Under the pieces are notes generated by a model, which did not search any database, was not told the origin of the DNA, and saw only the letters and a list, made by a program, of their open reading frames with translations. From the NCBI GenBank assembly GCA_964347065.1, contig CAYFXN010000005.1, positions 1 through 61,719 on the forward strand: DNA of 61,719 nt, read 5' to 3'. A program made the position numbers and the translations under genes. This stretch comes from an uncultured bacterium. Its GTDB lineage: Bacteria > Desulfobacterota > Deferrimicrobia > J040. Positions 1,071-26,539 of the stretch are shown in pieces. How positions within the stretch are numbered: the stretch's first letter is position 1; the number at the start of each line of letters is the position of its first letter.

Positions 1071-2183
1071 TCATTCAGAGATGGCTAAATGGACCATCCT
1101 CGCGAAATTGAAGACGAGAACGCCATTGAATTCCCTCCCTGAATTCTCCATCATCAGAGCGATAATATCTTTGATTTCCCAATCTTTTTTGTACGGCCTC
1201 TTGCTCCTCAGAGCATCGAAAAAATCGGCAATCTGGACGACCTGACTCACGAGATGCTGCTTTTTTCTTTTATTGTTAAGCTTGGGATATCCTGTGCCGT
1301 CGTATCTCATGTGATGTTCGAAGGCAACGATCGGAGCGAGTTGTGTTAAGCCTTTCATACCAACCAGATAATTTGCTCCAGTAATCGTGTGGCGGGTTAC
1401 TTCCTGAAATTCCTCATCGGTGAGCTTGCCTTTTTTATTGAGGATATCTCTGGATAGGAACAGTTTTCCAACATCGTGAAGCAGGGCCGCAATGCCAATT
1501 TCGTGAAGCATTTCGTCGTTTATCCCGAGGGCCTCTGCCTGAAACATGGAAAGAACAGCCACGTTCGCTGCGTGAGTGTACGTATACTCGCTGTGCGATT
1601 TCACCGGGCTGATGAGCTTGAGAAAATGTGCTTCCCGCTTGAAGGTTATGAAAAAGTTGACCACGATCTCTTCGAGGCCGGCCACGTTTAACTTCTTGAA
1701 GGGAGATATGGAATTGAATATTTCCTTTGCCATCTCCAGCTGGGCTGCCGTTGCATTGCCCAATCCATCCGCTTCGGCTTCAGCGAGGGGCTGCAATTCG
1801 CCGGCCCGTAGTTCGACAACGCCCGTTTTTATGTGGGGATATGATCGAAACGGCTTGTTTTTATCGGTAAAATCCTCAATAAAACCGGCAAATTCCGGGG
1901 CCGTCAATCCTTTTAAAAAATCTATTCGCGATACTCCTTTTCTCTTCATCCGCTTTTTCAGGTTGTTTACGAGGCTTCCTTCATCGCGGGTGGGGCTTTT
2001 ATTGACGATAAGGTCATCTTCGACCATCATTATTTCAAAACTTTCGTTTTCCGCGAAGAATTCTGTGATGGTGGACAGGGATTTACCGATGAGGGCTTCT
2101 ACCGATGGATGCTCGGGCGAATAGAGAGAGCAGGTTGAGACGGCAGCCATGAACGTGGAGAGAAAGTTCTTATGGGGTTCCAT
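1071..2183 (-). CDS. HD-GYP phosphodiesterase with N-terminal YxxxHP domain (pair 1)
   Basis: YTYTHAANVA, LLHDVGK, EHHMRYDGTGYP, ADFFDALRSKRPYK. Start reassigned to ATG at 2183 (MEPHKNF) with a GGGGG RBS upstream. Confidence 0.88.
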   Translation of the reverse strand: MEPHKNFLSTFMAAVSTCSLYSPEHPSVEALIGKSLSTITEFFAENESFEIMMVEDDLIVNKSPTRDEGSLVNNLKKRMKRKGVSRIDFLKGLTAPEFAGFIEDFTDKNKPFRSYPHIKTGVVELRAGELQPLAEAEADGLGNATAAQLEMAKEIFNSISPFKKLNVAGLEEIVVNFFITFKREAHFLKLISPVKSHSEYTYTHAANVAVLSMFQAEALGINDEMLHEIGIAALLHDVGKLFLSRDILNKKGKLTDEEFQEVTRHTITGANYLVGMKGLTQLAPIVAFEHHMRYDGTGYPKLNNKRKKQHLVSQVVQIADFFDALRSKRPYKKDWEIKDIIALMMENSGREFNGVLVFNFARMVHLAISE

Positions 2184-4356
2184 GGTAGTTCCCCCGTGAG
2201 GTGGATTCAATTTTTTCACCACTTTTTAACAGTTTCAACGACTCCCCTCTTATAACATCGTTTTTTGATTTTGCCCCGGCTTCTGCGAGGCCCCGCACGT
2301 CATTTAAGGGGTAATGTTTCAATGTTTTGAAAACCTCTTCCCTGAGCCTCTCTATTGCACTTTTAAATAGAATGCTCTTTGAAAACATGAGATTTTTTAA
2401 AGCCCCAATTGCAGAGGGATCTCCGATCTTTCCCAGGACAGCAACCAGCGGGATCTTATCGAGATAATCTGCTCCGGTGACACCCTTTTTCTCCACCATC
2501 CTGAGTAGTTCGGGAACTGCTTCTTTGATCTTGAATGTTCCCGATAGGGTTATCGCCTGATTTACGAGTTTTTTTGAATTTGATCTGATATTTTTCATCA
2601 CCATATCTATGCCGTCCCTCTCACCTTTTTGAAGGAGGCATTTAATCGCTTCGGTACTTACTTGGATGTTTTCATTCTGACAGTAGGGTTTAACGTGAGG
2701 AATGACTTCCTTATCACCGCACTCTGTCAGGATAAATATCATGTTTCTTTTCACGAACCACCTATCATCGTCGAGTCGTTTTATCGCTTCTGAAACTGAT
2801 CTTTTACCGAAACCGGTGATCAACGTAATGATGAATCTCCTCGTTGCTTTGGACTCCTCATCGAATAAGACATCGAAGAGGTACGGCAGTATTCTCTCAC
2901 CGTAATAATTGCAGAGAACAGTGGTTTCATCGCGATTTAGTCTCCCCATGATCCTTAAAGATTCAACGAATCTAACAATGAATTCCTCTGAGTGAAATTG
3001 TTCGATAATGGTGGCAAAGAGATCCGGAAAAATTTTCTTTGCCTCGCTCTTTTCTATCCCTTTTATTATATTGAGGGCTTCGAAGTACTGACCAGTTTCG
3101 ACGTAATGTTGACACTGTTCGAGCAAAATTGGGATCTGTTTCTCCATGTCTTCATGAGAGACCATATTTGTACTTATAAGTTCGAGAAGAAATCGGTAGA
3201 AGGCCTTTTCGAGAGCCTCATATTCACATGCTTCTTTCAATTCTTTCATTTCTTCCTGGGCCAACTTTCCCGGTTCAAATTCAAGGATTTTCTGGATCTC
3301 ACGGTTATATTTCTCTGTAACGAATGCCTTGAAGTCACCCTTGCTGAGAAGGTTGATGATATCGGGTGACAGTAATATGTCATCGAGAATCGGTGAATCT
3401 TCGATAAACAAGTTTAACGGGTCATCTCTGCCATCAATTTTCGAGAACTTATCTATAAGGTTTTTAAGGGCTTCGGGTACCATGATCTTGTGTTCATTGA
3501 CGACGCTTAAAAGTTCTATAACTCTGTCGACAGATACTTCTCCGAGAGCTTTTTCAATCGGGACCATATCGGTTGAGATATTTTTCATAGTGGAAGAGAG
3601 AAACTGTTGTTTGAGTTCCGGACGGAGAGAATGTATGAAATCGAGCAATTTTTTCAGCTCAGTATCAGAAAAAAAACGTTCTGAGGAACTTCGTATGTAT
3701 GTGGTTATTACCCTGTCGTATGATTCCTCTTTTAAGTAACTGACCCCTTTCTCATTCAGCAGGGATGCGAGCATTTCCGGTGGGATTTTCCGTATTATCT
3801 CCGATCCTTCATTTTTCTGAAGGGTGCCTTCGAGGAGGCCGAAGAGGTAAAGTTCCCACAATTTTTTTTTCTCCTCGCCAGCCTCGGTCTTTCCCTCCTC
3901 GAAGATAAATGAGTCGTAATCTACGAAATCCAGGGTAATATTTTTAAGATTGAAACTTTTGCGGGATTCTTTTATCTCCTCGATAGATGTTTCGGAGGAC
4001 GTTTCAGAGAGGAACCGGTGAAATGCGTAAATATCATCTCTTGATAGGTTACGCGGGAAGGTAACGGAAGCGATACCGAGGCCGCTCAGGTACGTGGCGA
4101 AGTCCCGGTAAACGGGGTTTTTTTTGTCCAGGTAATGATTGTCAATCACCAGAGTGTCTTTCGCGATACCGAGGGTTATCTTCGGGCGTATATCGAAGAG
4201 CTTTTGCAACAGATCGTATGCCCGGTCAAGGGACCGTTGCACGGAGGGATGGTCTTCCGGATATATCGCGACATTTCTCCTCGAGATGTTGAGTTCGATT
4301 ATCGAATCGCTGAGCAACCGTGCATCGAGGGGTAATTTTTCCCTGCTATCCGCCAT
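2170..4356 (-). CDS. HEAT/ARM-repeat protein with N-terminal YPxxHP domain (pair 1)
   Basis: C-terminal half has PBS-lyase-type HEAT repeats (LDDDRWFVKRNMIFIL, STEAIKCL, LGKIGDPSAIGAL). N-terminus AIYPEDHPSV. ATG at 4356. Stop overlaps the HD-GYP start by 14 nt. Confidence 0.85.
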   Translation of the reverse strand: MADSREKLPLDARLLSDSIIELNISRRNVAIYPEDHPSVQRSLDRAYDLLQKLFDIRPKITLGIAKDTLVIDNHYLDKKNPVYRDFATYLSGLGIASVTFPRNLSRDDIYAFHRFLSETSSETSIEEIKESRKSFNLKNITLDFVDYDSFIFEEGKTEAGEEKKKLWELYLFGLLEGTLQKNEGSEIIRKIPPEMLASLLNEKGVSYLKEESYDRVITTYIRSSSERFFSDTELKKLLDFIHSLRPELKQQFLSSTMKNISTDMVPIEKALGEVSVDRVIELLSVVNEHKIMVPEALKNLIDKFSKIDGRDDPLNLFIEDSPILDDILLSPDIINLLSKGDFKAFVTEKYNREIQKILEFEPGKLAQEEMKELKEACEYEALEKAFYRFLLELISTNMVSHEDMEKQIPILLEQCQHYVETGQYFEALNIIKGIEKSEAKKIFPDLFATIIEQFHSEEFIVRFVESLRIMGRLNRDETTVLCNYYGERILPYLFDVLFDEESKATRRFIITLITGFGKRSVSEAIKRLDDDRWFVKRNMIFILTECGDKEVIPHVKPYCQNENIQVSTEAIKCLLQKGERDGIDMVMKNIRSNSKKLVNQAITLSGTFKIKEAVPELLRMVEKKGVTGADYLDKIPLVAVLGKIGDPSAIGALKNLMFSKSILFKSAIERLREEVFKTLKHYPLNDVRGLAEAGAKSKNDVIRGESLKLLKSGEKIESTSRGNYHGTP

Positions 4357-4712
4357 AAGCAATTAAAGGCAACCGATAATTTTCGTTCAATGCATCCTTT
4401 CATTCGCTCGACTAAGGTGAGCTCACGGCATCTCCTTTCAAGAGAGCCCGGCCATGATGAGCGTTCCTCTTTCCTTTCTTTATCGGATTCGGGGGATGAT
4501 TGTTGAGCCCCTCGGCACCAGGGAGCGCAACGGGGTATAGCCGGAGGACCACCTCCAGGATACCGCTCTGTTTTTTCCAGCGATTCTGACAAAGTGGAAG
4601 GGGAACTTTCGAGAGGACAAACCGTGTCAGACATCGGTTTTGTTATGGTATTATATGAAGAAATTCCGTGCATATGATCGGAAGAGAAGAACGTTGGGTT
4701 CGGAGCTATCCG

Positions 4713-6279: not shown

Positions 6280-7638
6280 ATGAAGGTATTCACCGGAATA
6301 AGATTTAAACTTTCGCTCGTCACGCTCGTGCTCATTTTGTTTGTCACCGGAGCATCTTCTTTTATTGTCACCAATATAATGGATAGTTTCCTACTCAAAG
6401 AGCTCGTCAGGAGGGGTTTTTCCATCACCGGGAGCGCCTCCACAGCGGCAGGGTACAGCATCCTTTCGAACGACAGGCTTGCGCTGGATAATCTTGCTTC
6501 GAAGATTAGGCAGTATCAGAAAGACATCGTGTATGTGGCGATGGTTGATGACGAGGGCGTCATCAAGGCGCACAGTGATCTGGAAAAAATGGGAGAGCTT
6601 TTTATAGAGAGGGAAAGCGAGGTCATACGCAGAGAAGAAGACGGGTCGACGGTGAAAAAGGTCTTGAGAATGGGTACCATGTGCTTCGAATTCCGAACGC
6701 CCATCATTTTTGCAGATAAAGACCTGGGAGCGATCTATCTCGGAATAGCAGAACAGACTCTCATTGCATCTCAGGAGGAAGCAAGAAAAAAGATCATTCT
6801 CGTATCGGGAATAATTCTCACACTCGGAGTGGCCGGGGTATTTTTCCTTTCCGGTTTCATAACTACCCCGGTAAAGCGCCTTATGGAAGGCGTGTTGAAA
6901 ATGAAATTGTGGGAGTACAGGAGTGAAATCAAAGTGGTTTCCCGGGATGAGCTTGGAGAGCTGACGCGTAATTTCAACGAGATGGCGAACACGATAATGA
7001 ACCAGAAAGAAAAGCTCGAGCTCTCCGCCAGGGAACTGGAGGATGCGTATGTTGCAACAGTGAGGATTCTCGCAGCGGCGATTGATGCGAGGGATGAGTA
7101 TACCTTTGGTCATTCCGAAAGAGTTGCGAAGATATCTGTTCTCATCGGCAGTAAGAGCGGCCTCTCCAATGCCGAAGTGCGGGATCTTGAGATGGTATGC
7201 CTCTTTCACGATGTGGGAAAGATAAAAACCCCTGACAAGATTCTCCATAAGATGGCGCCCTTAAATGATGAAGAGTACAGATTGATGATGAAACATCCCG
7301 AGGACGGGGCAGACATCCTCCGGCTGGCAAATTCGCTGCAGAAACACGTCAAAGCTGTCCTCCACCATCATGAATGGCATAACGGGAAGGGATACCCTCA
7401 CGGGTTGAAAGACGGGCAGATTCCCTATTTTTCTTCTATTATTGCCATCGCAGACGCCTACGATGCCATGACATCATCGCGACCATACCGGAAAGGGATG
7501 TCAAGGCAGGAGGCGATGCAGGAGATTGTCAAGTATAAAGGCGTCCAATTCAATCCGGAAATAACAGACGTGTTCGTCGAAATACTGAAAGATCCGAAAT
7601 ACGCCAAAAAACTGGAAAGAAAAGGGGTCTATGGATGA
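6280..7638 (+). CDS. Membrane-bound periplasmic-sensor / HAMP / HD-GYP c-di-GMP phosphodiesterase
   Basis: Two TM segments, HAMP (SRDELGELTRNFNEM), AAIDARDEYTFGHSERVA, LFHDVGK, HHEWHNGKGYP, DAMTSSRPYR. GGGGAGG RBS. Confidence 0.9.
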   Translation: MKVFTGIRFKLSLVTLVLILFVTGASSFIVTNIMDSFLLKELVRRGFSITGSASTAAGYSILSNDRLALDNLASKIRQYQKDIVYVAMVDDEGVIKAHSDLEKMGELFIERESEVIRREEDGSTVKKVLRMGTMCFEFRTPIIFADKDLGAIYLGIAEQTLIASQEEARKKIILVSGIILTLGVAGVFFLSGFITTPVKRLMEGVLKMKLWEYRSEIKVVSRDELGELTRNFNEMANTIMNQKEKLELSARELEDAYVATVRILAAAIDARDEYTFGHSERVAKISVLIGSKSGLSNAEVRDLEMVCLFHDVGKIKTPDKILHKMAPLNDEEYRLMMKHPEDGADILRLANSLQKHVKAVLHHHEWHNGKGYPHGLKDGQIPYFSSIIAIADAYDAMTSSRPYRKGMSRQEAMQEIVKYKGVQFNPEITDVFVEILKDPKYAKKLERKGVYG

Positions 7639-22067: not shown

Positions 22068-23069
22068 ATGATTGCAAAAAACAGATCATGGCAGTCGATA
22101 GAGGGAGTAAGAATCGGAAAGGCCGTTTCCGCAAACGGGCTCACGGGGACCTCGGTTATGATTTTCCCCGATGGGGCGGTTGCTTCCGCAGAGGTACGGG
22201 GTTTTGCAACGGGAACCCGGCAGATGGATTCCCTCTCGCTGACCCACACGGTGGAAAAAGCCTACGCCCTGGTTGTTTCTGGCGGGTCCGTATTTGGCCT
22301 CGATGCGGCATCGGCGGTTGCACGTGAGTTGAACCTGAAAAACATCGGGCTTTTCACGGGTATTACCAGCATCCCCGTGGTTCCAACAGCCGTGATATAT
22401 GACCTGTCATTCCCGGAAAATGTAGGAACCAATTACGGAGAGTTGGGGAAAAAAGCCATTGACGATGCTTTCTCAACGGCTGTCGGGGAGGAGGGGGGTG
22501 GTGCCGGTGCCGGTGCATCGGTTGGCAAAATTCTCGGCATAGAGCGGGCGACGAAAACTTCCAAAGGACTTGCCGCTCGATCGGTGAAGGAAGGATATCA
22601 TGTTGGTGCCATGGTGGTTCTCAATGCCTTTGGAGATGTATACGACAAAAAGGGTGGCATAGTTGCAGGTGTCAGGCGCATGGACGGGAAGGGATTCGAT
22701 AATTCAAGGAAGCTGTTCATGGAGGGGCACACGAGGAAACCCTTTGGCGTTATGGACAGTACCACCGTGTCGGCTGTGGTGACGGACGCAGATCTCGGAA
22801 AGAAGGAACTTTTCATCGTTGCTTCTCAAATCAACAACTTTCTCGCGTCACATATACGGCCTTACGGCTCCATTTTCGACGGAGATATCGTATTTTCTCT
22901 CTCCACGGGGAAAAGGGGAAAGGTGGATAATCTCTTGAAATTTATTGTTATGGCGGAAGAGGTGGTTTATGAATCTCTGATGGTGGCCGTTTTTTCCGCA
23001 AAATCCTCAGGCGGTTTGCCCTGTGCAAGGGAAATATTGGGAGAAGGAGGAGAAATTGGAAGAGATTGA
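22068..23069 (+). CDS. P1/S58 family peptidase (DmpA-like)
   Basis: EVRGFATGTR, VVSGGSVFGLDAASAV, VPTAVIYDL, GAGAGASVGK, FDGDIVFSLST. Confidence 0.88.
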   Translation: MIAKNRSWQSIEGVRIGKAVSANGLTGTSVMIFPDGAVASAEVRGFATGTRQMDSLSLTHTVEKAYALVVSGGSVFGLDAASAVARELNLKNIGLFTGITSIPVVPTAVIYDLSFPENVGTNYGELGKKAIDDAFSTAVGEEGGGAGAGASVGKILGIERATKTSKGLAARSVKEGYHVGAMVVLNAFGDVYDKKGGIVAGVRRMDGKGFDNSRKLFMEGHTRKPFGVMDSTTVSAVVTDADLGKKELFIVASQINNFLASHIRPYGSIFDGDIVFSLSTGKRGKVDNLLKFIVMAEEVVYESLMVAVFSAKSSGGLPCAREILGEGGEIGRD

Positions 23070-23631
23070 AAGGATACTGAACATCCTCATTCAAGATGAG
23101 GTCGCTCCCGTGAAAGATGAGGCGGTTAAATCCCTCGGCAAGTTCTCTGCGAGAAGGAGATTTCCTGAGTTTATGGGGGTACTTACTTCCGGAAAACCTG
23201 AAGACCGGATGAGGGTTGTTTACGCTGCAGAGGAGATGGGAGGAGATGAGGGTCTCAAGCTTCTCATGCAAGCCGTTGAAGACAGCGCCGATGATGTGAG
23301 AGGCGCAGCGATAAGGATTCTCGAGAATTACCCCCGGGCAGAGGTGTTGAAGACTCTCGTGGATCGGCTTCCCCAAGAAAAGGGCTTCGTTCTGGGAAAC
23401 CTGATAAGCGTTCTGGGCCGGTCCGGGAGAAAGGAGCTCGCCCCCATTCTGACACGGTTCATAAGTCACCCTGACACGGAGATACAGGCAAGAACGATCG
23501 AAGCTCTCGGCCATATAGGAACTGCAGAGGACCTGAAAGAGATAATCGGAAAAGCTGTTTCAGAGAGTCCGTCAGTTCGCAAGGCAGTGGCATTTGCACT
23601 CGGAGCTATCTCCTTAAGCCACGGATCTTGA
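23056..23631 (+). CDS. HEAT-repeat (PBS lyase-like) protein
   Basis: About five HEAT repeats (DDVRGAAIRIL, IQARTIEALGHIG, VRKAVAFALG). Start reassigned to TTG at 23056 behind AGGAGG. Confidence 0.8.
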   Translation: MEEIERILNILIQDEVAPVKDEAVKSLGKFSARRRFPEFMGVLTSGKPEDRMRVVYAAEEMGGDEGLKLLMQAVEDSADDVRGAAIRILENYPRAEVLKTLVDRLPQEKGFVLGNLISVLGRSGRKELAPILTRFISHPDTEIQARTIEALGHIGTAEDLKEIIGKAVSESPSVRKAVAFALGAISLSHGS

Positions 23632-24990
23632 AGGGTTTGCGTTCTCAAGGAGGGGGTTGACGGTGGTGACGATGCTCCTGTTGAACTTCCCCGTTTTCGG
23701 GTCTTTTTCTATAAGGTCTATGTGAACGGGAAAGTCCAGATTCCTGCCTTCTGCGTCGGTGAGCACGATTACCTTCGGTCGAGCCGAATCCTCAGTGTTT
23801 TGGGCTGATACGACGGCCACCTCGTCTGTATCGAGCTTCACCATCGTACCGATCGGGTAAATACCGAGAATTTTTATCAGGACCTTGATCATCGCCGGGT
23901 CCAGAGACTTGCCCGCCATTTTTGTCATCACTTCCAGGGATTCTTTCGGGGTTCTCGGTTTCTGATATGTTCTGAGCGTTGAGAGGGCGTCGTAACAGTC
24001 TGCAATGCTCACGATCTGGCTGTACGGTTCCATTTTGTATCCGGGCTCGATTTTGGGATATCCGGAGAGATCGAAACCCATGTGGTGTTCCCGTACGATC
24101 TTGCCGGAAACGGGGTTTATGAACTCCATTTCGATCAATATCCTGTGTCCTTCGTCGGGATGTTTCTTGATCTCTTCAAATTCCTCAAGTGTCAGGGTCG
24201 ATGGTTTTCTGATGAGGTCGAGAGCGACCTGGGTCTTCCCTACGTCGTGGAGGAGTCCCGCGACCCCTATGTCGATCTTTTCGCTTTCAGATAGGGAGAG
24301 GGATTCAGCGATAGTGAGTGAGATAACCCCGACGTTAACGGAATGGGTGTAGGTATATTCATCGTAGTTCTTTATCATCGTGAGGGCAAGCATGGCATCC
24401 TGATTTTTCTTGAGCATGCCCGACATGTCCTGGACCACTTTTCTCGATTCACTTCCCGAGGGAATTTTACCGAGGCGGATGTCGTTCATTGCCGCCGTAA
24501 CCGCCGAAATTGCGTTCTCGTAAATTTCCTTCGCTGCGGAGAGATCATCCGGTTCCTTGTCTTTCTCGACGGTGACGACCACGATCTTTTTAATATCCTC
24601 GATCTGGAAAAGGTTTCTCACCTTCTGCTCGCTTAATATGCTCCCGCGATTTGCGTGAAGTATCGATATGAAGCTCTCCAGTTCGCTTTTTTTCAATCCC
24701 CGGTGGAAGACAAGTGCCTCGATGCCGCATTCTCCGAGAGATTTGATGAATAGTTCTAAAGAAGAGGTGAGTTGAAACAGGGGAGTTCCTTCGAAAACGA
24801 GCGTTTCGTCCACGATGGCCAGCGCGAGTTCATTGAGTGATTCGAGCAGGGAAGTTATGAGATCGTAAGCTTGAGCTATAGTTTTTTGCACGAGAGGATG
24901 GTTTTCGGGGTAAAGGCCAAGGTTTTTGAGGGCGCCCCCCAGAGCTTTCGTTATTTCCTTTATCTGTGCCTCAAGCTCCATCCTTTCCAT
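23614..24990 (-). CDS. HD-GYP phosphodiesterase with N-terminal YPxxHP domain (pair 2), RxxQ variant
   Basis: GLYPENHPLV, YTYTHSVNVG, LLHDVGK, EHHMGFDLSGYP, DALSTLRTYQ, C-terminal YPIGTMVKL extension. Confidence 0.88.
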   Translation of the reverse strand: MERMELEAQIKEITKALGGALKNLGLYPENHPLVQKTIAQAYDLITSLLESLNELALAIVDETLVFEGTPLFQLTSSLELFIKSLGECGIEALVFHRGLKKSELESFISILHANRGSILSEQKVRNLFQIEDIKKIVVVTVEKDKEPDDLSAAKEIYENAISAVTAAMNDIRLGKIPSGSESRKVVQDMSGMLKKNQDAMLALTMIKNYDEYTYTHSVNVGVISLTIAESLSLSESEKIDIGVAGLLHDVGKTQVALDLIRKPSTLTLEEFEEIKKHPDEGHRILIEMEFINPVSGKIVREHHMGFDLSGYPKIEPGYKMEPYSQIVSIADCYDALSTLRTYQKPRTPKESLEVMTKMAGKSLDPAMIKVLIKILGIYPIGTMVKLDTDEVAVVSAQNTEDSARPKVIVLTDAEGRNLDFPVHIDLIEKDPKTGKFNRSIVTTVNPLLENANPSRSVA

Positions 24991-26539
24991 GGTCCATCCT
25001 CTCGAGAATTTTGGCTGCCTCCTTCCTACATATGCTATCGGAACCTTTGGTCAAATTTTCAAGTGCTTCATGTGCTTTTTCGGATTTTATTTTTCCGATG
25101 CCCTGGACGGCAAACATTTTGAGCTCCTTCAATCTCCTTGGCTTGAACAGCGGGTTGTACAGGGCGATGCTCTGTAATACAACTACCGCATTCTCGGTTC
25201 CGATGTTTTTCAGCGAATCGATAATCTCCTTCGAGATCCTGTAGTCAGGATAGACGAACTTTCTCCTTCCGAACCTCTCTTTGAGGATTTGTATGGCCGA
25301 ATCGTCTTTTTTCGTTCCCAAGGCTGCCACAGAAATAGTCGCTATGTTTTCGTCGGCATCGAAACAGCATTGACCAAGAGCCGTAATCGATATGGGGCTC
25401 TGGATTTTTGAAAGCGCTTTGATCGCCTCTTTCTTAACCCGCGGGTCGGGGTTCTTGAGCGTGTTTGCTATGTGCTGGGCAACCTCCTCTTTCCCAATTC
25501 CTCCCAGAATGGTGATCATGTTTCTGATGACGTACCATCTCGTGTCATCGAGGAACTTTACGATATACGGGATGGCAGGGTCCCCTATCTTGGTAACCAG
25601 ATCAACCATCGCTTTCCGGACGATGAGGTTCTTTTCATCAGTGAGCGCTGCAAGAATTTTTACCACGCCCGCTTCCCCTATAATGAGCAGGACGGTCTGG
25701 GCTTCCACCCTCTCCTGAAGCGATTTGCTCCCGAATTTTTTCACGTAAAGGTCGATAATATCCTCATCGACGAGCTCTTTGATACCCGTGATGGCGAGAT
25801 CTTTGATTTCTTCGTTCCCACCGGGAGGATACTCCGTGTGGTTGGAAAAGATCTTGATGGCCTTTTCGGCTTGGAGCAGTCGCTCCTTACGTGTCAGCTC
25901 ATCGATTTTTTTCAAAATCTGCTGAAGAGTATCTCTGTATTCTCCCGATTCAGCCGTTTGCGCCAGTTTGGACAGGAGCGTGTCGATATCGTCTTCCTCA
26001 ATTTTCATCTCCTTATCAATGGGCACTTTTTCAAAAATGATATGTTCATTTTCCTGTGGTGCCGGCTCCTTCTCCTTCTTGAGCTCCTCCATCAATTTTT
26101 CATAATCAACCCTGTTTATCCAGATTTTTGAAATTCTCATTCCTATGAGGATCCTCTCAAGCCCGCCCTTATTCATAATCTCGTCGGGATCGAGAGAAAT
26201 AGCTTGCAAAAAATCCCTCATCTCATCAAGTGTTACACCGGGTAGGAGGATGAGTTTGTTGGTTCTGCGAACGAAGAGTGCATTTCGAAAATCCGAGATG
26301 GCATCATGCTTTTCGGGAAGTTTTGTTTCACCGACGGTAAGGCTCGGTTTGCTCACGGAAATTTCGATTCCCCCGTCAGGGGGGGGGACATCATCTATCG
26401 ACTGGCAGATTTTCTGTAATATTTTTATCAGCGAGGGATGGCTTTCCGGATAGAAAGAAACTGCTTTCATCCCCTTCGCCATTTCCGTTACTGCTTTTGT
26501 AATCTTGTCGATGTAGGATTCCCTGTTATCGTCTTTCAA
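24971..26539 (-). CDS. HEAT-repeat protein with N-terminal YPxxHP domain (pair 2)
   Basis: SFYPESHPSL at the N-terminus, HEAT repeats (LDDTRWYVIRNMITILG, DPRVKKEAIKAL). TTG start. Overlaps the HD-GYP start by 20 nt. Confidence 0.85.
   Translation of the reverse strand: MKDDNRESYIDKITKAVTEMAKGMKAVSFYPESHPSLIKILQKICQSIDDVPPPDGGIEISVSKPSLTVGETKLPEKHDAISDFRNALFVRRTNKLILLPGVTLDEMRDFLQAISLDPDEIMNKGGLERILIGMRISKIWINRVDYEKLMEELKKEKEPAPQENEHIIFEKVPIDKEMKIEEDDIDTLLSKLAQTAESGEYRDTLQQILKKIDELTRKERLLQAEKAIKIFSNHTEYPPGGNEEIKDLAITGIKELVDEDIIDLYVKKFGSKSLQERVEAQTVLLIIGEAGVVKILAALTDEKNLIVRKAMVDLVTKIGDPAIPYIVKFLDDTRWYVIRNMITILGGIGKEEVAQHIANTLKNPDPRVKKEAIKALSKIQSPISITALGQCCFDADENIATISVAALGTKKDDSAIQILKERFGRRKFVYPDYRISKEIIDSLKNIGTENAVVVLQSIALYNPLFKPRRLKELKMFAVQGIGKIKSEKAHEALENLTKGSDSICRKEAAKILERMDHGKDGA

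Follow-up and report, generated by a model that had tools for sequence, protein, structure and literature searches.

Organization of the Pair 2 Locus

The window examined here is the stretch from position 1 to 61,719 (nucleotides, nt) of contig CAYFXN010000005.1 (assembly GCA_964347065.1) from an uncultured bacterium of the class Deferrimicrobia in the phylum Desulfobacterota, whose genome comprises 2.4 Mb in 183 contigs. The system under study is a gene pair on its reverse strand, termed pair 2, coding for a HEAT-repeat protein (HEAT2) followed by an HD-GYP phosphodiesterase (PDE2). HD-GYP proteins form the less understood class of cyclic-dinucleotide phosphodiesterases, and few of them are understood in their regulation. 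Both proteins of pair 2 begin with the same type of N-terminal domain (N-domain), marked by a YPxxHP motif, and a related pair (pair 1, HEAT1 and PDE1) lies elsewhere in the window. The features of pair 2 are as follows (aa, amino acids):

24971-26539, reverse strand: HEAT2, 522 aa, TTG start, built from the shared domain at its N-terminus, then a charged linker, then HEAT repeats of the PBS-lyase type (open reading frame and translation)
26090-26539, reverse strand: shared N-domain of HEAT2, aa 1-150; YPESHP at 26435-26452; profile match at 26081-26524, E = 1.0e-51
24980-25696, reverse strand: HEAT-repeat region of HEAT2, aa ~282-520; Pfam HEAT_2, HEAT_PBS and HEAT
23614-24990, reverse strand: PDE2, 458 aa, with the N-domain, two long helices, the HD-GYP domain and a C-terminal beta domain
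24556-24990, reverse strand: shared N-domain of PDE2, aa 1-145; YPENHP at 24895-24912; profile E = 1.8e-54
23866-24378, reverse strand: HD-GYP catalytic domain of PDE2, aa 205-375; HHM at 24079-24087; RTYQ at 23962-23973
23653-23865, reverse strand: C-terminal five-strand beta domain of PDE2, aa 376-446; GIYPIGTMVKL...TVNP

The initial annotation had described a HEAT gene and then an HD-GYP gene of 522 and 458 aa, with the same order and overlap as pair 1, and both open reading frames were found as described, with the motifs SFYPESHPSL in HEAT2 and GLYPENHPLV in PDE2. The two frames overlap by 20 nt, and a Shine-Dalgarno-like stretch (GAGAGGA) lies about 10 nt ahead of the PDE2 ATG; translational coupling of the two genes is therefore plausible. 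HEAT2 carries tandem repeats above the Pfam model cut-offs (HEAT_2, E = 1.1e-24, 87 bits against a cut-off of 27.7; HEAT_PBS, 38 bits against 20.9), which places it in the PBS-lyase type of the HEAT-repeat family (PF13646), and its homologues, at 38-92% identity, are of equal length. PDE2 was matched by Pfam HD_5 with E = 1.2e-23. Two alternative contigs of 61 nt from one sequencing run (X3) span the junction of the two genes at 24965-25025; this assembly bubble suggests strain variation at the overlap.

A Shared Uncatalogued N-Terminal Domain

The first ~150 residues of HEAT2 and PDE2 align with each other (BLASTP E = 7e-5), and a shared alpha/beta domain of ~145 aa was observed at the start of both proteins of pair 1 and of pair 2. 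All four families align without internal gaps (alignment A2), with Y27, H31 and P32 (PDE2 numbering) invariant, giving the signature Y-x3-H-P. AlphaFold modelled the PDE2 N-domain alone with a predicted local distance difference test score (pLDDT) of 88 and a predicted template modelling score of 0.83, and in the predicted fold the YPxxHP loop connects two long helices, after which come a beta-hairpin and beta-alpha units. The shared domain had no match in Pfam at E<=10 or in NCBIfam at E<=0.1, and a Foldseek search of the Protein Data Bank (PDB) with the N-domain-only model returned nothing significant (best E = 0.45, template modelling score <=0.33); the domain is thus uncatalogued in Pfam, NCBIfam and the PDB.

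Three candidate relationships were rejected. PDB sequence relatives sought by profile were only designed or repetitive proteins. DUF3391 (PF11871), which the HD-GYP literature describes as four strands followed by two helices, matched none of the four N-domains with the threshold at E<=10, and the N-domain model had no fold match to 3TM8; the same model scores 1e-21 to 1e-37 on true DUF3391 members. For GAF, no Pfam match was found, and the GAF-like Foldseek matches had E values of 1-2 with probabilities <=0.08.

With a threshold of E<=1e-3, the A2 profile matched 7,549 clusters among 1.84 billion representatives, and with E<=1e-10 the number was 2,832. In the 64 top matches scanned, the partners of the N-domain were HEAT repeats (44), HD-GYP (5), GGDEF with AAA_16 (4) and MshEN with a T2SSE ATPase (1), and one top match was a TPR false positive. 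The HEAT, HD-GYP, GGDEF and MshEN/T2SSE partners all belong to cyclic di-GMP (c-di-GMP) contexts. Two proteins, P0249 (957 aa) and P0208 (676 aa), fuse the YPxxHP domain to MshEN, P0249 together with a GspE/PulE-type T2SSE ATPase, and these MshEN fusions give the domain a further output linked to c-di-GMP. Tandem copies of the N-domain within one protein were also observed, as in the GGDEF-AAA_16-N-N-HEAT proteins of ~1,430 aa from Desulfobacterales (P0197, P0214 and relatives; metagenome proteins), in which a diguanylate cyclase is fused to the N-domain/HEAT unit and AAA_16 represents a STAND-like ATPase.

Gene Pairing and Distribution

In the genome of the window, the N-domain is confined to the four proteins that make up the two pairs. 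Each of the 31 genomes of the class carries one to three pairs of matches, the members of a pair lying next to each other at a distance of 1.5-2 kb, and in a sample of the phylum the domain was detected in 50 of 121 genomes and 38 of 92 genera. Forty-four further loci were fetched from the phylum. At the resulting 45 loci and at five apparent singletons (50/50), an N-domain HEAT gene lies directly upstream of an N-domain HD-GYP gene on the same strand; the five singletons are pairs with a more divergent enzyme-side domain, reading IYDSKN in place of YPxxHP. A third pair type was seen at L132-L136 (genomes G082, G114, G035, G045 and G118), with an N-domain HEAT protein of ~570-600 aa followed by an HD-GYP protein whose N-domain motif is without HP (IYDSKN, NYKFGH). 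Identical arrangements, HEAT upstream of N-domain HD-GYP, occur in Elusimicrobia and Nitrospirota.

The neighbourhood of pair 2 is syntenic in Deferrimicrobiaceae-like metagenome-assembled genomes at ~50% protein identity, and the order in these relatives is alaS-recX-pilT-recA-ligT-cinA-pgpA, then the divergent HEAT and HD-GYP genes, a convergent small HEAT gene and ruvX-mltG. Such a wholly conserved neighbourhood would suit the idea that the two genes stand together as synteny passed down in a single lineage, without functional meaning, but the distribution contradicts it: the pair, present one to three times per genome, turns up in varying contexts in many families and in other phyla, and its two proteins have a domain in common, so that we give this idea almost no credence.

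A less easily dismissed alternative is that the N-domain is a sensor of a small molecule or other signal which acts separately in each protein, the two genes being co-transcribed to answer a common cue and their products not binding each other. The only invariant polar residues, Tyr and His, lie in one loop between two helices and could form a ligand or metal site, the fusions to GGDEF, AAA_16 and MshEN/T2SSE outputs resemble those of many sensor domains, and the weak GAF-like fold matches (E about 1-2) point the same way. For HEAT repeats, however, no output activity is known, and a protein of this sensor-HEAT kind would thus need a partner anyway; the N-domain genes stand in adjacent twos at every locus examined; and the lineages of HEAT-type and enzyme-type domains are old and distinct and have been kept together. 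On balance, separate sensing is considered unlikely.

Two Module Types and the Order of Duplication

Pair 1 and the membrane-bound HD-GYP protein used as comparator lie in the window at the following positions:

2170-4362, reverse strand: HEAT1 of pair 1 (type B), 730 aa; N-domain profile E = 5.1e-38
1071-2222, reverse strand: PDE1, the pair 1 HD-GYP enzyme, 383 aa, start probably Met14 at 2183; N-domain profile E = 5.1e-35
6280-7638, forward strand: membrane HD-GYP comparator, sCache-HAMP-HD_5, with canonical HHE and RPYR

Pair 1 has the gene order of pair 2 and its genes overlap too; both pairs carry the N-domain on both proteins and HHM in the enzyme, and both enzymes belong to the Y-T-Y subfamily described below. 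The HEAT regions of the two HEAT proteins align at 25% identity (E = 2e-17), with HEAT1 being ~200 aa longer than HEAT2, whereas the enzymes are 27% identical, PDE1 having no C-terminal domain and reading RPYK where PDE2 reads RTYQ. The genome holds nine HD-GYP domains, of which seven show HHE with Rxx(R/K); HHM is confined to the two module enzymes and RxxQ to PDE2. The initial annotation had contrasted HHM in both module enzymes with HHE in the membrane HD-GYP protein, which the sequence bears out, and the six other HD-GYP domains also read HHE.

Across the phylum, the pairs fall into two types, both of which recur in many families, and type A is present outside the class of the window in at least 10 other families:

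Type A (pair 2): HEAT protein of 516-548 aa; enzyme of 443-464 aa; C-terminal beta domain present
Type B (pair 1): HEAT protein of 665-750 aa; enzyme of 369-411 aa; C-terminal beta domain absent

This combination of features is not absolute outside the phylum, as shown by an Elusimicrobia locus in which a HEAT protein of 728 aa goes with an enzyme that carries the C-terminal domain.

A maximum-likelihood tree of 90 N-domains separated the 45 HEAT-borne from the 45 enzyme-borne domains with a Shimodaira-Hasegawa approximate likelihood ratio test (SH-aLRT) support of 93, and this split still stood at 83 after the tandem domains were added; the tree comes from a quick search on a domain of 150 columns, and the deeper relations among its groups are not secure. 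The four groups required the minimum possible number of label changes (3), each type forming its own group on either side. The HEAT-borne and enzyme-borne domain types therefore diverged first, and the whole pair was duplicated later. Two subclades of type B, with 10 and 18 members, are mirrored in the HEAT and enzyme partners, so that the partners diversified together. The N-domain trees called for by the initial annotation, as a check of co-evolution by pair, thus agree with its proposal of ancient paralogous systems, both types being found in many families and the split implying duplication of the whole pair. An ancient duplication of the complete module is accordingly the part of our explanation that we regard as very probable.

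PDE2 as an HD-GYP Enzyme

The AlphaFold model of PDE2 (pLDDT 85.8) was matched by Foldseek to PmGH, Bd1817, PA4781 and DvhD, and its closest solved relatives are PmGH (4MCW), V-cGAP3, DvhD, Bd1817 and PA4781. A long connector of two helices (residues 149-203) joins the N-domain and the catalytic domain, an arrangement shared with other sensor-HD-GYP proteins. PmGH is the best solved relative by both sequence (E = 1e-18) and fold (E = 6e-9), and metal ligands and substrate contacts could be mapped from it residue by residue. The seven metal ligands of PDE2 are H216, H248, D249, H277, H302, H303 and D331, corresponding to H189, H221, D222, H250, H276, H277 and D305 of PmGH, and none of them varies among 122 family members or among the module enzymes (45/45). 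The equivalents of the catalytic D183 and K225 of PmGH (the lysine being K252 in PDE2) and the GYP motif are likewise kept in all 45.

The position of PmGH E185, the eighth and bridging carboxylate, is occupied by the tyrosine of a Y-T-Y motif in 43 of the 45 module enzymes, and the trinuclear signature is thus absent. A Tyr or Phe at this position defines the 7-ligand HD-GYP subgroup, and E/D-T-G the trinuclear subgroup (PMC4159591); the module enzymes therefore belong to the former. PmGH differs from PDE2 in having eight ligands (trinuclear, E-T-G), HHE and RxxK against the seven-ligand Y-T-Y, HHM and RxxQ of PDE2, and in being a homodimer with a GAF sensor domain and no partner gene.

Within the HHExx(D/N)GxGYP loop, HH, D/N and GYP are retained and the glutamate is replaced by M, I, L, V, T or F in 45/45 module enzymes. 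The change follows the N-domain, with N-domain enzymes of Elusimicrobia, Krumholzibacteria and Nitrospirota reading HHL and the DUF3391 enzymes HHE. HHM was rejected as a discriminator between the pairs, being common to both. As HHE belongs to the canonical motif, and as the degenerate HD-GYP proteins Bd1817 and HnoD act without catalysis, its loss might be taken to inactivate the enzymes and to leave the module proteins as nucleotide receptors or purely structural elements. Against this, the glutamate is not among the metal ligands, catalytic residues or substrate residues mapped in PmGH (PMC4159591), and its replacement is therefore not read as inactivating; the seven ligands, the catalytic residues and the GYP tyrosine, which is absent in Bd1817, are kept in 45/45. 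Inactivation is very unlikely, and with their catalytic residues intact the module HD-GYP proteins look active.

The C-Terminal Beta Domain and the DUF3391-HD-GYP Relatives

The AlphaFold model shows residues 383-444 of PDE2 as a five-strand beta domain (pLDDT about 81-92), which is conserved in 120 homologues; a PDB profile search for relatives of the C-terminal domain returned nothing real. A hidden Markov model of the domain matched the C-terminal extension of 12 DUF3391-HD-GYP proteins (~415 aa, Proteobacteria) with E values from 4.6e-4 to 6.9e-9, and the motif GIYPxG(S/T)xVxL, together with Y-T-Y, is common to these proteins and PDE2. The extra YPIGTMVKL domain of the initial annotation is thus a real domain, borne out by the model and the homologues, but it is not new to the module.

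The DUF3391-HD-GYP proteins (Bd1817/PA4108/VC2497, COG2206) resemble PDE2 in the two long helices leading into their HD-GYP domain, in the Y-T-Y 7-ligand subfamily and in the C-terminal extension, and among the matches listed they are the best genome matches to PDE2, at 30-36% identity over aa ~148-430. They differ from it in several respects: the N-domain of PDE2 is not DUF3391, having a helix-helix and then beta/alpha order as opposed to four strands and then two helices; their motifs are HHE and RxYK as opposed to HHM and RxxQ; and only the PDE2 type has an obligatory upstream HEAT partner with a matching N-domain. In view of the shared C-terminal extension, motif and Y-T-Y, the most apt description of PDE2 is a PA4108-like chassis with the YPxxHP domain in the place of DUF3391.

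Sequence Signatures of a Predicted Nucleotide Preference

The R340-T-Y-Q343 stretch of PDE2 aligns with R314-K317 of PmGH, a residue pair that hydrogen-bonds guanine O6/N7 (PMC4159591). RxxQ is present in 16 of the 17 type A enzymes, whereas 26 of the 28 type B enzymes show Rxx(R/K), Gln occurring in the remaining two (2/28). PDE2 carries the Rxx(Q/N) sequence signature of HD-GYP proteins selective for 3',3'-cyclic GMP-AMP (3',3'-cGAMP) (GAP; PmxA type). PmxA, an RxxQ enzyme, prefers 3',3'-cGAMP, and its Q518R substitution switches the preference to c-di-GMP (Wright et al., bioRxiv 10.1101/600031); the RxxQ rule is repeated by Galperin and Chou. PDE2 resembles PmxA (MXAN_2061) and the other Rxx(Q/N) GAPs in having Gln in place of the Lys or Arg that contacts guanine O6, and PmxA differs in being a membrane Cache-HAMP-HD-GYP protein with no HEAT partner, shared N-domain or C-terminal beta domain. 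Judged from these residues, type B most likely degrades c-di-GMP, and a preference for 3',3'-cGAMP is the likeliest reading of type A PDE2, at slightly less than even odds. The suggestion in the initial annotation that the pairs may serve different nucleotides accordingly has support from sequence: it agrees with the RxxQ/Rxx(R/K) split and finds no backing in HHM, which both pairs share.

Two further elements of the genome bear on this question:

G000:C71:2084-3457 (L013/L075), reverse strand: GGDEF protein with a Hypr signature, 458 aa; NDSYGHLVGS...RYGGDEF, with Ser at GacA position 348
G000:C80:4893-4969 (L131:1501-1577), reverse strand: GEMM-I riboswitch, the only one in the genome, 44.9 bits

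The Hypr (cGAMP-synthase) rule requires Ser or Thr at GacA position 348 together with GGDE[F/Y] (PMC6456294). The substrate-contact motif could be read in 10 of the 17 GGDEF domains of the genome, and one of these has the Hypr signature. Its full-length orthologues carry Ser or Thr in 30/30 relatives of the class, and the 290 residues before its GGDEF domain have no Pfam match. By its signature, this protein could be a source of cGAMP. Relatives with Gly at the 348-equivalent (GHxxGG), mostly with GGDEY, were observed at L110, L113, L114, L116 and L124 (genomes G100, G052, G092, G062 and G127); we know of no described specificity for this variant.

Neighbouring Genes of Pair 2

The gene at the downstream end of pair 2 encodes a further HEAT-repeat protein:

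23023-23631, forward strand: small HEAT-repeat protein, 202 aa, convergent with PDE2, 18 nt 3' overlap

This protein was matched by Pfam HEAT_2 at 5e-24, and the position of its gene is kept at ~50% identity in three relatives (L001, L003 and L004). In three more families (G062, G125, G032), a similar small HEAT gene stands on the opposite strand next to the type A locus, and unlike pair 2, the pair 1 locus has no such convergent gene. The small HEAT protein may be a third component of the type A module. Upstream of its gene lies a 333-aa open reading frame (22068-23069, forward strand) with no Pfam match, and in the relatives L001 and L004 this position is taken by a 327-aa Peptidase_S58 gene.

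Proposed Mechanism

In the explanation that we favour, with a probability of roughly 0.55 for the whole (module, docking and nucleotide split), pair 2 is the type A form of a conserved signalling unit made of two paralogous-module genes, the upstream one supplying a HEAT-repeat protein and the downstream one, in all likelihood coupled to it in translation, a catalytically competent HD-GYP cyclic-dinucleotide phosphodiesterase. The N-domains of HEAT2 and PDE2 would dock on each other, for which we rate the chances as slightly better than even, and by this contact the HEAT scaffold would hold, localize or gate the enzyme by way of the long helices between its N-domain and catalytic domain. The HEAT arm, perhaps together with the small convergent HEAT protein, would bind something else and so position or gate the enzyme. 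The ancestral pair underwent duplication as a unit; type B keeps the guanine-reading Rxx(R/K) and would clear c-di-GMP, and type A, with RxxQ and the PA4108-like C-terminal beta domain, would prefer 3',3'-cGAMP, for which the Hypr-signature GGDEF protein of the genome could be the source. What the data show is the anatomy, the homology of the N-domains, the strict pairing of the genes, the sequence of the duplication events, catalytic residues that are intact and a difference in motif between the two types; the docking of the N-domains, the regulation of the enzyme by the HEAT protein and its substrate preference are the parts that we infer. A bolder version, in which YPxxHP is a dedicated heterodimerization module, type B clears c-di-GMP and a three-component type A module is the degradative arm of a Hypr-GGDEF/cGAMP pathway in Deferrimicrobia-like and other lineages of the phylum, is rather doubtful.

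Several observations weigh against the favoured explanation. The idea that the tandem N-N proteins are Rosetta-stone fusions, uniting a domain of the enzyme type with one of the HEAT type, was rejected, their first and second domains being sisters in a clade of their own; they therefore lend little support to heterotypic docking. No RNA data bearing on transcription were found for this organism, and the sequence is present only in runs consisting of metagenome-like contig sets of flat depth, which are silent on an operon. The single GEMM-I riboswitch of the genome, examined as a candidate of the cGAMP type, has G at the equivalent of Vc2 G20, a position where A is linked to the sensing of cGAMP, and so looks like a c-di-GMP type. 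RxxQ also predicts selectivity imperfectly: among the six additional Rxx(Q/N) candidates assayed in 10.1101/600031, three appeared to be selective for cGAMP, two accepted both nucleotides and the sixth showed no activity. The association that favours a cGAMP pathway in type A genomes, with a Ser/Thr-type GGDEF protein as the best match in 13/23 of them versus 10/98 other genomes of the phylum sample (Fisher p 5e-6; 4e-4 without the class of the window), is rough, as it takes best matches only and ignores phylogeny and as several type A genomes gave no such match.

The riboswitch and the two tested RxxQ enzymes that accept both nucleotides also favour a competing explanation, namely that both paralogous enzymes degrade c-di-GMP and that the pairs differ in regulation, partner or location, through the C-terminal domain and the small HEAT protein. 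The closest characterized chassis leans towards it as well, since DUF3391-HD-GYP proteins share Y-T-Y and the C-terminal domain with PDE2 and one of them, PA4108, is an active c-di-GMP/pGpG phosphodiesterase according to the HD-GYP literature, in which an RxxS enzyme is also reported to hydrolyse c-di-GMP still. Yet Gln is near-fixed in type A and rare in type B, R or K stands at this position in all seven other HD-GYP domains of the genome, and the Hypr-signature GGDEF protein is conserved throughout the class. We regard c-di-GMP as the common substrate as a credible but less probable alternative to the division of nucleotides between the two types.

Novelty and Biological Meaning

A 2021 census of HD-GYP architectures lists REC, GAF, DUF3391, DUF3369 and membrane sensors and mentions neither a HEAT partner nor a YPxxHP N-domain, and a full-text literature search found no paper linking HEAT repeats with HD-GYP. 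The enzyme class is known; an architecture in which two proteins share an uncatalogued domain is not described, and the split of types A and B at the specificity residue is new information. If the favoured explanation is true, a domain present in thousands of clusters, linking a phosphodiesterase (elsewhere GGDEF cyclases and MshE-type ATPases, in other lineages) with a scaffold of helical repeats, would represent a new principle of local second-messenger control. The two paralogous modules form a natural experiment within one small genome, as they differ at the one residue that has been shown to set the choice of an HD-GYP enzyme between c-di-GMP and cGAMP, and cGAMP signalling would, if this reading is true, be extended to an uncultured sediment lineage with a dedicated, scaffolded cGAMP phosphodiesterase.

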